A stretch of 64,000 bases of DNA from Candidatus Thorarchaeota archaeon (GCA_048882485.1 JBHLRP010000003.1:64001-128000), one strand, 5' to 3'; counted from the stretch's first letter, positions 36,809 through 46,136 are shown. Program-made: numbers and translations. Notes: generated by a model from the letters alone, not told the origin.

Positions 36809-37639
36809 ATGTTGGAATTCATCCAAGGCAAGCAAACCGTCAGACTCTCAAATAGTATTCAATTGGACCTTCTAATCAAGGGACAAGGGAATCCTGTATT
36901 ATGGTTACATTCAGGTTTTCGAGGAAGAATAGGACTTGGGAACCTAGTTACTGCTGTCGAAAAGAAACTCAAACAAGAAAATAATGCGTGGCTCCATATA
37001 ATTCCCAATCTCCCCGGATTTGGTGAAAGCACTCCTGGACCTTCAGGGAACACCAATCCTTATGAGTTGACAGACGCAATTGAAGAATTAATCTGTCTTC
37101 TTAATTACCCCTCAATAGATGTCATCGGATATAGTTTAGGAGCGAATATTGCATCTATACTTGCAAATAGAAATCCAGAGAAAATCCACCGAGTTGTCCT
37201 TCTGGGTACTGCAATAGAAGGATCGAATCTTGATATCTACAGACGAATGCTAGATATGCATAATGACCAAAATTGGGAAGGTCTTGTCAACGAAATAGCG
37301 CAAAACTTGGTTGGAAAGAAGAATAGGTCACAATATGCTAGGATGATGCCATTAGTCAAGAAGCAAGTGTCTTCGAAGAGATTCTCTCAGGATTTAACTC
37401 GTATTCTCTCGTCTGGAGTTCGTCTGGATGTCTTTAAGGAAATCGAGAGCATCACTCATCCCATGTTAATGATTTCAGGCAAAGAAGATCCATTTGTACC
37501 AAGACCAGGCCGTATAGAAATGTTGAAACAAAAAGATAACATCAAACTTGTTCTTCTCGATGGAATTGGACACAATGAGTTAGTATTTCCAAGACAGATA
37601 GATTTGTCAGATCAGATTATAGATTTTCTTCAAAACTAA
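36809..37639 (+). CDS. Alpha/beta hydrolase (possible thioesterase/esterase)
   Basis: NLPGFGES, GYSLG nucleophile elbow, GKEDP, GIGH. Confidence 0.85.
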   Translation: MLEFIQGKQTVRLSNSIQLDLLIKGQGNPVLWLHSGFRGRIGLGNLVTAVEKKLKQENNAWLHIIPNLPGFGESTPGPSGNTNPYELTDAIEELICLLNYPSIDVIGYSLGANIASILANRNPEKIHRVVLLGTAIEGSNLDIYRRMLDMHNDQNWEGLVNEIAQNLVGKKNRSQYARMMPLVKKQVSSKRFSQDLTRILSSGVRLDVFKEIESITHPMLMISGKEDPFVPRPGRIEMLKQKDNIKLVLLDGIGHNELVFPRQIDLSDQIIDFLQN

Positions 37640-38403
37640 GCTACAATAGTAAGGATGTAGTTTCCTGCATGTGCAAAAAAGACTGGTTTCTGATTCTGGA
37701 TATTATCCGACGAGTGTACTACTATATTATCATTCTCAATGCTCAATTTGTATTCGAGTGGTGATTTAGAACTGATGGAAGAGAAAGCTTTGAATCCAGC
37801 TTCTAATGCCGACCAAATTACAATTTCAGAATTCATCAAATTAAGACTGGGGATAGATTTTGAGAGTAACTCAGTGAATAAACGGATCTCCTCGTGTGAG
37901 TGAATTTTAGAAATCCTTCTAGCAACTCCATTGTGTCTCGCTAATCTTTCACAATCCACGCCAATAATTCCATTTCTTCTGCATGCAGCTACGACATACC
38001 CATCTTTATGGCTAATTGATATTGCTCCATTGAACTTGATTTTTGAATCATTGAGATTGAAAAATGGTTTTCCATGTTTCTCATTCTCAATACTGAAGCT
38101 TTGAAAGTCAATCTGGTCCTGATTGATGATATCGAAAAGGCTTCGCTTTGCTAATACTCTTCCAACATAGAATTGCTTTCTTGTGTTTGGTTGATTGAGT
38201 TTCATTAATCTCCTAATTTCAGATGCAGAAAGATGATCCCGTATCATTGAATCAGCTAATGTGATATTATTGAATCGTGAGCCATGAATTGAAATCCCAG
38301 TACTCGTATGCAGTAGTTGCGTTTGATTATCAATTAGGATTTGATTTTCAATCAGTCTATAGAAAGATTCCTTTAGAATCTCATATTCAGTTTCAGTCAT
38401 CAT
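37636..38403 (-). CDS. Sfp-type 4'-phosphopantetheinyl transferase
   Basis: GRVLAK, HGKP, SISH, IGVDCE, WSALEAGFKA. Confidence 0.88.
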   Translation of the reverse strand: MMTETEYEILKESFYRLIENQILIDNQTQLLHTSTGISIHGSRFNNITLADSMIRDHLSASEIRRLMKLNQPNTRKQFYVGRVLAKRSLFDIINQDQIDFQSFSIENEKHGKPFFNLNDSKIKFNGAISISHKDGYVVAACRRNGIIGVDCERLARHNGVARRISKIHSHEEIRLFTELLSKSIPSLNLMNSEIVIWSALEAGFKAFSSISSKSPLEYKLSIENDNIVVHSSDNIQNQKPVFFAHAGNYILTIVA

Positions 38404-38411
38404 TTGCTAAG

Positions 38412-39482
38412 TTATGCTCCTACAAAGCTGCCTCTCAATTTGCTCGCTACAATTTCTGGAGGTATAACAACGACCTCAGTGTTAAGCAGATGTTGGAAAA
38501 AAAATTCTCCTGCTCGATACCCCCTTGTGAAATTCTGTCTCGTCGCTAACCTGATAAAACATCTATTGGATTTCTCTTGGTCGGTCAAGTCGCCAAGTTC
38601 TAGACTAAAATTGAAAGAAGAATAACCATCATTGCCATAGTACTCTAAAACATTGGATACTCCTTGGGCTAGAGAAGTGATAACCTCATCAGGCGTATCC
38701 TTGAATTTGCCACTTGGAAGAAGTCCAAAAACCTCATTTGTGCAGGTTGGTGAGAATGGAGTAAACCAGTGGGTAGACTCGAGCTGCCCAACATAGCGTA
38801 CTCCTAATTCCTTTTCCAATTCAATAAGGTCATCCCAATATTCATGACCATACTTCTCGCTGTACTCGAGCAATGCGTCCTGAGTCTTTCTAGAATAATT
38901 CGTTGGCTGAGAGGAGGCTATTAATTGTAGATGCGCATGTACAGCACTTGCACCTGCTGGCGGCATATAATTACAATTGAGTGATCCGAAGAGATTTTCA
39001 TCAGGCGGAAGATGGGAAACGAACTCCCTCGCCGCGAGAAATGCATCTCTTAGCATTGATGGGGCAAACTCCTGTGGTTTTAGAAAGTGTTTCTTAGATA
39101 ATACTATAATAGCATGAAATTTCGATAAAGGGAAAAGGTTTGGAAAAAGCACCGATTCACCAACTGTGATTCTTCCTTCTGGGAGGATTTCCTCAGGAAA
39201 CTTCGGTGTCGCCGTATGGACTTTTTCAGGGCAAAAGAAACACTTCTCACTGTTTTCGTTGACAAAAGCATTTAGAAATTCATCATCTGTACTCTCTATG
39301 AGAGTTTCGAGTTTGTCTACAAGCCTGAGTCCAATAATACTCATGTTTCCAGTGAGTGGATCTTTTCGAATTTCAATATCTTGAATATCCATTTCAAAAT
39401 CCATAAGAGGGCTGTGCAGTTTTGCTGATTCGCTGAATCTCTCCATTTTTATCCTGCTTGATACACCCGCCACAACTATCAC
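38412..39482 (-). CDS. GalT-like (HIT superfamily) sugar-1-phosphate nucleotidyltransferase
   Basis: EIRKDPLTG, CFFCP, FPNLFP, NY-x3-AGASAVHAHLQ, PEIVA. Confidence 0.8.
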   Translation of the reverse strand: MIVVAGVSSRIKMERFSESAKLHSPLMDFEMDIQDIEIRKDPLTGNMSIIGLRLVDKLETLIESTDDEFLNAFVNENSEKCFFCPEKVHTATPKFPEEILPEGRITVGESVLFPNLFPLSKFHAIIVLSKKHFLKPQEFAPSMLRDAFLAAREFVSHLPPDENLFGSLNCNYMPPAGASAVHAHLQLIASSQPTNYSRKTQDALLEYSEKYGHEYWDDLIELEKELGVRYVGQLESTHWFTPFSPTCTNEVFGLLPSGKFKDTPDEVITSLAQGVSNVLEYYGNDGYSSFNFSLELGDLTDQEKSNRCFIRLATRQNFTRGYRAGEFFFQHLLNTEVVVIPPEIVASKLRGSFVGA

Positions 39483-45488: not shown

Positions 45489-45727
45489 ACTTTAACACCA
45501 TGATTCTTTAGTGCTTCTTTCATTAGCCCGATTGTGGTCATCTCAGTAATTTCTTCAACATCCAGGGCTAAATCCCATTCATCCTCAAACAAAGCCATCA
45601 GGTCCATATGAGTAACCGAATCCCAGCTATCAATGTCGTCAGGTGTACTATCATCCGAAAACTCATCTGGTTCAACACCAAATACCTCGCAGATATATTC
45701 ATTGAATTTATCGAGTTGCGACATCAT
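45485..45727 (-). CDS. Acyl carrier protein
   Basis: 80 aa, very acidic, SWDSVTHMDL phosphopantetheine site, ALFEDEWDL helix II. Confidence 0.92.
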   Translation of the reverse strand: MMSQLDKFNEYICEVFGVEPDEFSDDSTPDDIDSWDSVTHMDLMALFEDEWDLALDVEEITEMTTIGLMKEALKNHGVKV

Positions 45728-45734
45728 AATTCAC

Positions 45735-46136
45735 CTACTTTGATTTTATATGCATAACTCTGGATTCAGCAACTCCTTCAAGGACAACTTTTCCGTCTTG
45801 ATTATAAACCAATGTTTCTACGGTTGCGACTTTTCTTTTGTCGATGGAAGTAATTGTCAGCTTTGCTGTTACAGTGTCATTGATTCTGACTGGGAAAGTA
45901 TACTTTATTGTTTGACTCATCCAAAGGTTTCCTGGACCAAACATTTTTGTCAATGCAGCAGAAACTAGAGCTGCAGAGAGAATTCCATGAGCGATTCGTC
46001 CTTTGAAAATTGTTCTATTTGCGAACTCCTCATCGGTATGCAGGGGGTTGTCATCACCACTGATCTCAATCAGCTTTTGTATATCTGCTTCAGTGATCTG
46101 TTTACTGATTTCGATAGTGTTTCCAACCTTCATCAT
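45735..46136 (-). CDS. MaoC/PhaJ-like (R)-specific enoyl hydratase/dehydratase
   Basis: SGDDNPLHTD, GRIAHG, FPVRINDTV. Confidence 0.92.
   Translation of the reverse strand: MMKVGNTIEISKQITEADIQKLIEISGDDNPLHTDEEFANRTIFKGRIAHGILSAALVSAALTKMFGPGNLWMSQTIKYTFPVRINDTVTAKLTITSIDKRKVATVETLVYNQDGKVVLEGVAESRVMHIKSK

Follow-up and report, generated by a model that had tools for sequence, protein, structure and literature searches.

A predicted carrier-protein-dependent acyl-tailoring operon in a surface-glycan locus of a Thorarchaeota archaeon

INTRODUCTION

In Vibrio cholerae O1, wbeK-wbeO (rfbK-O, VC0248-VC0252) were proposed to form a module for 3-deoxy-L-glycero-tetronate (2,4-dihydroxybutanoyl) by Morona et al. 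(1995, Gene 166:19; as related in PMC12208996). The tetronate-bearing O1 antigen requires VC0248-VC0252 (PMC3441752, PMC9915646, PMC12208996) and is affected by mutations in wbeL, wbeM, and wbeN (PMC3441752, PMC9915646); in biochemical terms the tetronate pathway itself still has the standing of the 1995 proposal. Related genes, called "fatty-acid-synthesis-like" and with putative roles, occur in the flagellin glycosylation islands of Aeromonas group II and Enterobacteriaceae (PMC7874193, PMC4875605), and the Aeromonas flagellin glycan made from such an island carries an unexplained 102-Da moiety (PMC7874193). By arithmetic, 102 Da equals a dihydroxybutanoyl residue, C4H6O3.

Here we analyzed a stretch of 64,000 nucleotides from a Candidatus Thorarchaeota archaeon (the window). 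The initial annotation had proposed that an operon in it is colinear with the V. cholerae O1 genes, and the order ACP, ligase, Fe-ADH, LuxE/LuxC, acyltransferase is indeed that of VC0248-VC0252 as published (PMC3441752, PMC9915646, PMC12208996), with the functions and lengths of VC0249, VC0250, and VC0251 taken from PMC3441752 and PMC9915646. As the comparison was made with the published gene order, this likeness is one of architecture only. The features of a WbeK-O-type cassette were found together in the window: an ACP gene next to an ANL ligase gene, an Fe-ADH gene between the ligase and LuxE/LuxC, LuxE and LuxC with conserved active-site cysteines, an adjoining acyltransferase, and a glycan locus around them.

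RESULTS

Gene content of the operon

The ten open reading frames of the initial annotation were found at their coordinates, the start of LuxC being the one correction, and matches to family profiles gave the same content of nine contiguous minus-strand genes and a convergent α/β hydrolase. From the first gene of the operon onward, the features are as follows.

45735-46136, minus strand: MaoC-type (R)-specific enoyl hydratase/dehydratase (PF01575, 2.4e-21; motif DDNPLH)
45485-45727, minus strand: acyl carrier protein (ACP), 80 aa (PF00550, PP-binding, 23.8 bits vs. a cut-off of 20.8)
43989-45488, minus strand: ANL adenylating enzyme, or AMP-ligase (PF00501, AMP-binding, and PF13193; motifs TSGSTGTPK and YGQTE)
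42908-43984, minus strand: iron-containing alcohol dehydrogenase (Fe-ADH), predicted to convert aldehyde to alcohol (PF00465 and PF25137; motifs GGGQVMD and HALAH)
41808-42926, minus strand: LuxE-family acyl-protein synthetase, the second adenylating enzyme (PF04443, 1.9e-61)
40519-41805, minus strand: LuxC-family thioester reductase, predicted to convert acyl to aldehyde (PF05893, 3.3e-79)
39479-40456, minus strand: predicted LpxD-family acyl-ACP-dependent N-acyltransferase (PRK00892, 232 bits vs. a cut-off of 207)
38412-39482, minus strand: GalT-fold (double HIT) nucleotidyltransferase or phosphorylase (AF2 model and Foldseek)
37636-38403, minus strand: Sfp-type 4'-phosphopantetheinyl transferase (PPTase), two-domain (PF22624, AASDHPPT_N, and PF01648, ACPS)
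36809-37639, plus strand: convergent α/β hydrolase (PF00561, Abhydrolase_1, 9.9e-16; GYSLG nucleophile elbow; weak BioH-like matches)

Genes of the set overlap by 4 bp, as those for the ligase and the ACP do, or are separated by short gaps, and the set therefore reads as an operon. Catalytic motifs were intact throughout, both on inspection and in alignments to solved structures. The MaoC protein displayed 90% identity to its counterpart in the related genome G020. In the ACP, the attachment serine S37 lies in a W-D-S motif, with W35, S37, and H40 invariant in 12 orthologues. The ANL enzyme is a probable acyl-ACP synthetase that would load an acid on this ACP; its solved relatives are, nearest first, feruloyl-/fatty-acyl-CoA synthetase and then malonyl-CoA, o-succinylbenzoate-CoA, and oxalate-CoA ligases, the last three of which may offer a hint to the substrate. 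C362 of LuxE is invariant and aligned with a cysteine conserved close to the C-terminus in Photobacterium LuxE (7XC6_E), and Cys229 of LuxC, in an ACSS motif, aligned with Photobacterium LuxC (7XC6_A). The PPTase presented the two domains, the length (~230-280 aa), and the GxD and W/FxxxE...K signatures of Sfp-type enzymes, here as GVDCE and WSALEAGFK. The α/β hydrolase, probably an editing thioesterase or esterase, was retained with the module in G020, in a second Thorarchaeota genome (G356), and in MK-D1.

For LuxC, the family and the end at 40519 stood, and the start was moved: the reading frame is translated from around 41805 (ATA) and not from the first ATG at 41709. The 34 codons 5' of this ATG are conserved in G020, where the changes are synonymous, and the G356 orthologue has an ATG where the ATA stands here. 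LuxE and LuxC are in this genome either separate genes or genes coupled at the ATA codon.

Acyltransferase and GalT-fold enzyme

The LpxD-family protein aligned with the LpxD structures 4e75, 3eh0, and 3pmo, including the catalytic His of HIGHNV and the DRG motif, and scored 225.7 bits with the LpxD equivalog TIGR01853, under its cut-off of 242.5. The GalT-like protein (38412-39482) had no match in Pfam and only a weak GalT match, under cut-off, in NCBIfam, and thus represents a divergent subfamily. Its AF2 model (pLDDT 89.9) gave ADP-glucose phosphorylase (1z84/2h39, E 1e-16) as the best Foldseek match, along with the E. coli and human GalT (1hxp/5in3). C81, C84, H182, H184, and Q186 are invariant in the family; the protein thereby combines the double-HIT fold, the CxxC of the Zn site, and the HxHxQ nucleophile motif of GalT/ADP-glucose phosphorylase (HIT branch III). 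The genome has a single copy of this gene, and its relatives stand alone in other genomes, so that its role here is a guess. In Thorarchaeota, the LpxD-like gene has the GalT-like gene as its conserved partner and not the PIG-L deacetylase gene, which does not accompany the module in G020 or G356.

Glycan island

The operon lies in an island of ~40% GC between flanks of 46%, and the surface-glycan setting first suggested for it agreed with the Pfam content of the island, which comprises glycosyltransferases, PIG-L, a TagF-like gene, and methyltransferases.

46284-53630, remainder of the island: two GT4-like genes, PIG-L deacetylase (48134-48787, minus strand), two paralogous membrane proteins, a nucleotidyltransferase, a TagF-like transferase, and a GT2 (Pfam, TM segments)
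46137-46283, divergent intergenic region: putative A/T-rich TATA-like boxes ~30 nt before both start codons (sequence inspection)
32506-36345, left part of the island: two FkbM methyltransferases, a class I methyltransferase, and a DUF346 propeller protein (Pfam)

No sugar aminotransferase was found in the island, and perosamine genes were not among its annotated genes. A genome of the same genus carries nonulosonic-acid genes in its own low-GC island by the same flank. The region is a hypervariable, swappable surface-glycan locus.

Host and distribution in other genomes

An archaeal (Asgard) host, as originally assigned, was borne out: the island sits between archaeal genes and the nearest relatives of each gene checked were Asgard. 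The ten genes are found in synteny in both G356 and G020, with 46-90% amino-acid identity in the latter, and adjoin the same archaeal flank (Rpo5-MoCF-HD-TatD block) in three Thorarchaeota genera.

ACP/PPTase chemistry is usually called missing from archaea. The initial annotation relied on this view, which does not hold in general for Asgard archaea, ACPS (PPTase) domains being present in 130 of the 400 genomes searched, in many cases inside giant KS-AT-ACP-KR-DH megasynthases. Its claim that the operon brings its own PPTase was upheld: this gene gave the sole ACPS match, and the ACP gene the sole PP-binding match, found in the genome (90.5% complete).

The survey of synteny recovered the cassette in genomes of different Asgard families, in archaea outside this group, and in many bacteria, so that it is not the oddity of a single archaeon. 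The core ACP-ligase-ADH-LuxE-LuxC occurs in at least 11 of the 400 Asgard genomes searched, among them the cultured Promethearchaeum syntrophicum and Lokiarchaeum ossiferum, with an Sfp-like PPTase gene beside the core in 10 of 11. The bacterial donor expected from phylogeny could not be named; the closest non-archaeal LuxE relatives are those of Clostridium (52-56% identity), and the Asgard LuxE proteins can form one clade beside them (AU p 0.68).

Natural fusions were found between ligase and LuxE, between ADH and LuxE (Hermodarchaeota), and between LuxE and LuxC, and in the versions of Methanomassiliicoccus and Clostridiaceae an SDR, which is not homologous, stands in for the Fe-ADH. These fusions and this exchange argue that the two activating enzymes work together, as do the two reductases. 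The combination of LpxD-like gene, PIG-L, and cassette recurs independently in the Methanomassiliicoccus and Clostridiaceae versions, which adjoin a DegT aminotransferase, an initiating sugar transferase, and glycosyltransferases; the Clostridiaceae cluster includes a PF00975 thioesterase and an extra Ldh/Mdh-type 2-hydroxyacid dehydrogenase. In MK-D1 the cassette is surrounded by a WecA-like transferase, a small hexapeptide acyltransferase, MaoC, and DegT. Such a recurrence with LpxD-like, PIG-L, and DegT genes, together with the neighbours in MK-D1, speaks for a link to amino-sugar acylation.

DISCUSSION

Proposed function

We consider it rather probable that the locus is a self-sufficient carrier-protein-dependent acyl-tailoring operon in a hypervariable surface-glycan island. 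A small acyl group with hydroxylation is probably assembled on the ACP of the operon itself and then passed to an amino sugar. The most likely function is that a nucleotide amino sugar becomes N-acylated by a hydroxyacyl group, with acid, chain length, and acceptor sugar all inferred. We found no characterised enzyme of this cassette family in the literature, and each chemical step is a prediction from families, motifs, and folds. The Sfp-type PPTase would turn the dedicated ACP into its holo form and the ANL ligase would put on it an acid, a short dicarboxylic acid with or without unsaturation being the most likely. LuxE would adenylate the free distal carboxylate, which LuxC would reduce to the aldehyde and the Fe-ADH to the alcohol, whereas MaoC would add or equilibrate an (R)-3-hydroxyl. 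The LpxD-family enzyme would then use the ACP-borne hydroxyacyl group to acylate a UDP-amino sugar at its free amine; this sugar would probably be supplied by the GalT-fold enzyme through nucleotidyl exchange with an amino-sugar 1-phosphate or, alternatively, derive from the action of the PIG-L deacetylase of the island. The α/β hydrolase probably clears mis-loaded ACP, and the adjoining glycosyltransferases would build the acylated sugar into a surface glycan.

Alternative explanations

LpxD-family enzymes normally use C10-C18 (R)-3-hydroxyacyl-ACP, just the (R)-3-hydroxyacyl type of thioester that MaoC would yield, and the substrates on which LuxC and LuxE were defined have long chains; the acyl chain may therefore be long. 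The product might then be a lipid and not a glycan decoration, with a long-chain, possibly omega-hydroxylated acyl-ACP used by the LpxD-like enzyme on UDP-GlcN to yield an N-acyl-glucosamine glycolipid, that is, a lipid-A-like or GPI-like anchor. The best NCBIfam match of the ligase, a long-chain-fatty-acid-CoA ligase subfamily, although under cut-off, and the PIG-L deacetylase of the island (an LpxC- or GPI-type step) are in line with this. Nevertheless, we regard it as unlikely, given that the genome (assembly 90.5% complete) gave no match for LpxA, LpxB, or LpxC (PF03331, PF02684, PF13720), that it showed no FAS/ketosynthase beyond thiolase-like matches, so that a long-chain acid would need import, that two adenylating enzymes with a reductase and an ADH suit a dicarboxylate better than a plain fatty acid, and that the locus is a swappable glycan island; the sole cassette with a known product, that of V. 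cholerae O1, gives a C4 acyl group. LuxE, LuxC, and ADH could also act apart from the rest, reducing a free acid to an alcohol with the hydrolase in the place of LuxD, so that the aldehyde, alcohol, or diol would be used elsewhere (e.g., in an ether, wax, or phospho-alcohol substituent) and the ACP, ligase, and LpxD-like enzyme would serve a separate acylation. The parallel between α/β hydrolase, LuxE, LuxC and LuxD, LuxE, LuxC, the conservation of the cysteines aligned with 7XC6, the TagF-like phospho-alcohol transferase and nucleotidyltransferase of the island, and the Clostridium versions without an acyltransferase beside the cassette would fit such a division. It appears quite unlikely, however, as the hydrolase matched only Abhydrolase_1, Abhydrolase_6, and Hydrolase_4 and not LuxD (PF02273), and as the NCBIfam equivalog cut-offs were missed by far (115.3 bits vs. 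750 for LuxC and 70.8 bits vs. 550 for LuxE); moreover, the ligase-LuxE fusions and the invariant order ACP-ligase-LuxE-LuxC point to a single molecule as the substrate of both activating enzymes.

That a bacterial fragment was mis-assembled or mis-binned into an archaeal MAG could be suspected from the GC content of the island, ~6 points under that of its flanks, and from the position of Clostridium as the nearest non-archaeal source of LuxE. The chance of this is negligible: the island lies within a contig of >128 kb with archaeal genes on both sides, Rpo5 on one and, on the other, CCG and FAD genes 92-95% identical to those of a same-genus genome. The module occupies the same flank in two other Thorarchaeota genera, the nearest relatives of all genes checked are Asgard, and closed genomes of cultured Asgard archaea contain the cassette; on these grounds the explanation was rejected in practice. 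A more far-reaching version of events, which we hold to be improbable, is that the cassette is an old, vertically kept Asgard trait and not a recent bacterial import, that the product of the Thorarchaeota LpxD-type transferase is a glycolipid or anchor with N-acylated glucosamine, for which the donor is a longer (R)-3,omega-dihydroxyacyl-ACP, and that LuxE and LuxC are joined or coupled via an unusual AUA-reinitiation or frameshift site. If true, it would place a carrier-protein-dependent, fatty-acyl-bearing membrane component in archaeal relatives of eukaryotes.

Significance

Asgard surface glycans are, to our knowledge, undescribed. The operon presents a self-contained ACP pathway that recurs across Asgard families, and the locus is an archaeal instance of the O-antigen-like, low-GC, swappable glycan island. 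As the cassette is present in both cultured Asgard species, chemistry proposed in 1995 for cholera O1 becomes testable in an archaeal setting. A bearing on membrane-lipid evolution would arise only if the acyl chain proves long.

Comparison with known systems

The LuxCDE fatty acid reductase of luminous bacteria (PDB 7XC6; PMC9157457) shares the LuxC and LuxE families and their cysteines (Cys229 and Cys362, respectively) with the Thorarchaeota operon, where, in contrast, LuxE and LuxC come with a carrier protein, one more ligase, an ADH, and an acyltransferase. The acyltransferase resembles the LpxD of lipid A biosynthesis (PDB 3EH0, 4IHF, 4E75) in length and domain order (N-terminal domain, left-handed β-helix, C-terminal helix), has the catalytic His, and presumably uses acyl-ACP as donor; its partners are the GalT-fold enzyme or PIG-L and not LpxC. 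The flagellin glycosylation islands of Aeromonas group II and Enterobacteriaceae likewise combine ACP, AMP-ligase, luxE, luxC, and a reductase (PMC7874193, PMC4875605), but with an SDR (3-oxoacyl-ACP reductase) instead of Fe-ADH, in a pseudaminic-acid setting and without an in-cluster PPTase. As in V. cholerae O1, the cassette lies inside a surface-polysaccharide locus and its presumed output is an N-hydroxyacyl amino sugar. WbeN is there a single 825-aa LuxE+LuxC protein, which was not among the best 120 fused homologues listed, whereas the Thorarchaeota version has an archaeal host and adds MaoC, the GalT-fold enzyme, the Sfp-type PPTase, and the α/β hydrolase; in the position of WbeO it has an LpxD-family acyltransferase.

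Gene content and conserved motifs of the operon

All ten open reading frames of the acyl-building gene set were found at exactly the coordinates given in the initial annotation, and Pfam and NCBIfam profile searches assigned them, the GalT-like one only weakly, to the families that it had named.

Genes of the operon and the convergent hydrolase, with the basis of each assignment
36809-37639, plus strand, alpha/beta hydrolase (Pfam/NCBIfam)
37636-38403, minus strand, two-domain Sfp-type PPTase (Pfam/NCBIfam)
38412-39482, minus strand, GalT-like protein, 356 aa (without Pfam family; weak GalT match)
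39479-40456, minus strand, LpxD subfamily (PRK00892, 232 bits, cut-off 207; equivalog TIGR01853, 225.7 bits, below 242.5)
40519-41709, minus strand, LuxC (3.3e-79)
41808-42926, minus strand, LuxE (1.9e-61)
42908-43984, minus strand, Fe-ADH (Pfam/NCBIfam)
43989-45488, minus strand, ANL ligase (Pfam/NCBIfam)
45485-45727, minus strand, ACP (Pfam/NCBIfam)
45735-46136, minus strand, MaoC (Pfam/NCBIfam)

The catalytic motifs were intact, as had been claimed: standard motifs were seen in the ligase, hydrolase, ADH, PPTase, and MaoC, Cys229 of LuxC and Cys362 of LuxE aligned with the conserved cysteines of Photobacterium LuxC and LuxE (PDB 7XC6), the LpxD-like protein retained the catalytic His in the alignment, and the W-D-S serine of the ACP did not vary across 12 orthologues. 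For the 356-aa GalT-like protein a confident fold was predicted (pLDDT 89.9), whose top structural matches were the Arabidopsis GalT-like ADP-glucose phosphorylase and the GalT of E. coli and human; both CxxC and H-x-H-x-Q were invariant in the family, and these features taken together bear out the name GalT-like. The predicted LuxE-ACP complex scored 0.29 vs. a mark of 0.32 and was counted neither for nor against an interaction.

The start of LuxC was compared in three regions.

LuxC start regions compared
41709-41811, minus strand, window
L009:12105-12215, locus of a relative
L031:10630-10740, locus of a relative

At 41811, one base ahead of the stop codon of LuxE, the open LuxC frame begins; it contains no ATG, GTG or TTG before codon 35, and the 34 upstream codons are conserved with G020 (a Thorarchaeota genome of another genus in the same family) through many synonymous changes. 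The orthologue in G356, a genome of similar standing, has an ATG, 1-4 nt past the LuxE stop, at the codon that is ATA in the window and in G020. The conservation of 34 codons without a usual start, together with this ATG, argues that LuxC may be either reinitiated at AUA after LuxE termination or produced as a LuxE-LuxC fusion via a -1 shift.

Archaeal setting and self-sufficiency

The source assembly has 3.96 Mb and a completeness of 90.5%, and the nearest named homologues of the window genes belonged to Thorarchaeota, Sifarchaeia, Promethearchaeum, and Lokiarchaeum. The GC content of the glycan island (32.4-53.7 kb) was around 40% vs. 46% in the flanks, which carry archaeal genes on one side (two Rpo5 genes, MoCF, HD, and TatD) and on the other (a CCG-domain protein and an FAD oxidase). 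The ten-gene set was syntenic in G020 (46-90% amino-acid identity) and in G356, and the block from Rpo5 to TatD adjoined it in both genomes, being inverted in G356. A mis-assembly artefact was ruled out by the archaeal genes on both sides and by the synteny and common flank in these two genomes. The two Rpo5/RPB5 genes are in tandem (28061-29278), both encode an Mrr-like (inactive nuclease) domain at the N terminus, and the pair is kept in G020 and G356.

In profile searches of this 90.5% complete genome, the ACP of the operon was the sole PP-binding match and its PPTase the sole ACPS match; the operon must therefore prime its own carrier. Ketosynthase matches corresponded to thiolase-like fragments only. 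LpxC, LpxB, and the LpxA C-terminal domain gave no match in the same genome, and the LpxD-like enzyme is therefore not part of a lipid A pathway. The proposal that the host is otherwise without ACP is thus right for this genome and wrong for Asgard archaea overall, where ACPS domains were found in 130 of 400 genomes.

The Asgard ACPS genes fell into three groups: Sfp-like genes linked to the cassette, small genes of AcpS type, present in many genomes of the Thorarchaeota family, and giant frames of 3,200-3,800 aa. The giant frame of the Asgard genome G069 (L135, G069:C9:64000-83999, 2016-12131) carries ER(NMO), KS, AT, KS-like, ACP, KR, PKS-DH, and PPTase domains and is preceded by a carboxyltransferase gene. 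It looks like a type I FAS/PKS-like megasynthase, of a kind widespread in several Asgard families. The small AcpS-type frames (150-190 aa; for example G020:C70:2369-2686 and G339:C1:1148053-1148370) were present in 38 of 85 Thorarchaeota-family genomes and absent from all 16 same-genus genomes.

Distribution and phylogeny of the cassette

Full-length LuxE matches were obtained in around 30 of the 400 Asgard genomes, and ACP, ligase, Fe-ADH, LuxE, and LuxC occurred together, usually with MaoC, in at least 11 genomes from several families. Among these 11 are two cultured species with closed genomes, Promethearchaeum syntrophicum MK-D1 and Lokiarchaeum ossiferum; the MK-D1 locus comprises a WecA-like transferase, ACP, ligase, ADH, LuxE, LuxC, hydrolase, PPTase, DUF354, a small hexapeptide acyltransferase, and MaoC, with DegT farther along. 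A Sfp-like PPTase frame of 255-283 aa adjoined the cassette in 10 of 11 genomes, and the LpxD-like and GalT-like extension appeared in the Thorarchaeota and Sifarchaeia group only. Outside Asgard archaea, the ligase-LuxE-LuxC triad was found in many bacteria and in MAGs of Woesearchaeota, Methanomassiliicoccus, Methanobacteriota, and Halobacteria. No description of the cassette was found in the literature on Asgard archaea with acyl carrier protein or PPTase.

In the LuxE tree (88 rows), one starred clade joined 11 Asgard, 4 other archaeal (MAGs), and 12 Clostridium/Bacillota sequences, its inner order not being settled; its sister group was formed by Planctomycetota and Acidobacteriota, and the Thorarchaeota trio was starred as well. 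Asgard monophyly was not rejected by the AU test (p 0.68), the constrained tree being better by 10.9 log-likelihood units. From this tree and test, neither a donor nor a direction of transfer can be named.

The Clostridium versions, as in Clostridium scatologenes CP009933 (L051, 8261-12402), are a bare ACP-ligase-LuxE-LuxC set without ADH or acyltransferase. After it come a sigma-54 activator and genes of 4-hydroxyphenylacetate or CoA-transferase type, a setting that is probably catabolic or regulatory and not glycan-related.

Variability of the glycan island

No full LuxE or LuxC match was obtained in the 16 same-genus genomes. In one of them, G011, the CCG and FAD genes share 92-95% identity with their counterparts in the window; the TatD homologue directly abuts these two genes, and a low-GC island lies on its other side. 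This island (L134, G011:C55, 4129-14223) contains a PseB/LegB-type dehydratase, DegT aminotransferase, hexapeptide acetyltransferase, NeuC-type epimerase, NeuB, CMP-transferase, and HisF-like protein, a complete nonulosonic-acid set of legionaminic or pseudaminic type, and also a B12-radical SAM enzyme. Only two small membrane proteins were common to both islands. In this the locus behaves as an O-antigen-like, swappable surface-glycan locus.

At 49057-50605 of the window, two adjacent paralogous membrane proteins, neither with a Pfam family, have 348 aa (internal duplication, 2 x 2 TM) and 170 aa (2 TM); they are kept beside glycan genes in G020 and G011 despite the differing rest of the island.

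Proposed pathway and acceptor sugar

Natural fusions of ligase and LuxE (in Methanohalophilus among others), ADH and LuxE (Hermodarchaeota), and LuxE and LuxC (hundreds of bacteria) place, as Rosetta-stone evidence, the two adenylating enzymes and the two reductases in a single pathway. A dicarboxylic acid, with one end on the ACP and the other reduced to the alcohol, would be the simplest substrate for a set that pairs two activating enzymes with a single carrier, a thioester reductase, and an alcohol dehydrogenase. Among solved relatives, the ligase lay closest to a feruloyl-/fatty-acyl-CoA synthetase and then to malonyl-CoA, o-succinylbenzoate-CoA, and oxalate-CoA ligases, matches weakly suggestive of a dicarboxylic acid.

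Two clusters from other lineages bear on the remaining steps. That of a Methanomassiliicoccus MAG consists of DegT, GFO oxidoreductase, GT4, LpxD, AcpS, ligase, LuxE, LuxC, SDR, and PIG-L, and that of a Clostridiaceae genome of PIG-L, LpxD-like, SDR, ACP, ligase, thioesterase, LuxE, LuxC, Ldh/Mdh, an initiating sugar transferase, epimerase, and GT1. In both, SDR stands in for Fe-ADH by non-homologous displacement, which is consistent with an aldehyde-to-alcohol step, and the independent recurrence of PIG-L and LpxD-like genes with the cassette is consistent with re-acylation of a freed sugar amine. The Ldh/Mdh gene hints at a 2-hydroxy acid. R-specific hydratases yield (R)-3-hydroxyacyl thioesters, the donor type of LpxD enzymes, and MaoC would supply such a donor to the LpxD-type enzyme of the operon; the alpha/beta hydrolase would act as an editing hydrolase.

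GalT catalysis proceeds via a uridylyl-histidine intermediate, and the enzyme has been used preparatively to convert galactosamine 1-phosphate into UDP-GalN. In Thorarchaeota the LpxD-like gene was always accompanied by the GalT-like gene, which is not true of PIG-L, whereas in Methanomassiliicoccus and Clostridiaceae it was accompanied by PIG-L instead. This distribution leads us to propose two alternative routes, GalT-like or PIG-L, leading to a UDP-sugar whose amine is free, the GalT-like enzyme being the hypothetical supplier in Thorarchaeota. The idea that the LpxD-like enzyme of this lineage always requires PIG-L as a partner was rejected, since the modules of G020 and G356 have no PIG-L next to them. 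A cassette-specific GalT-like family was also rejected, as relatives with 37-41% identity occur on their own in unrelated surroundings.

Comparison with known systems

The observations of the initial annotation (genes, motifs, and archaeal setting) stood, and its interpretation was supported in part. The colinearity with V. cholerae that it invoked is one of gene order, taken from three papers (PMC3441752, PMC9915646, PMC12208996). The O1 antigen requires the ligase gene wbeL (VC0249; PMC3441752), mutations in wbeM (VC0250, Fe-ADH) and wbeN (VC0251) confer resistance to O1-antigen-dependent phages, wbeN (2478 nt) encodes an acyl-protein synthetase plus acyl-CoA reductase (PMC9915646), and RfbK is the carrier protein (PMC12208996). 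The tetronate proposal (Morona 1995), as outlined where it is cited in PMC12208996, holds a dicarboxylic acid on ACP and reduces its far end. No Vibrio appeared among the best 80 cassette loci of the genome scan, nor WbeN in the list of the 120 best fused LuxE homologues.

Group II flagellin islands of Aeromonas carry ACP, 3-oxoacyl-ACP reductase, ligase, luxE, and luxC, and the corresponding glycan has a terminal 102-Da moiety that is unexplained (PMC7874193). A dihydroxybutanoyl residue (C4H8O4 minus water) has, on our own calculation, exactly 102.03 Da, a match that we regard as a lead and not as a result. The chemistry of this cassette family is unsolved, and cultured Asgard archaea could serve to test it.

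The system is a variant of the ACP/LuxE/LuxC cassette for acyl tailoring known from V. cholerae, marked by an LpxD-type transferase, GalT-fold partner, MaoC, editing hydrolase, own PPTase, and archaeal host.
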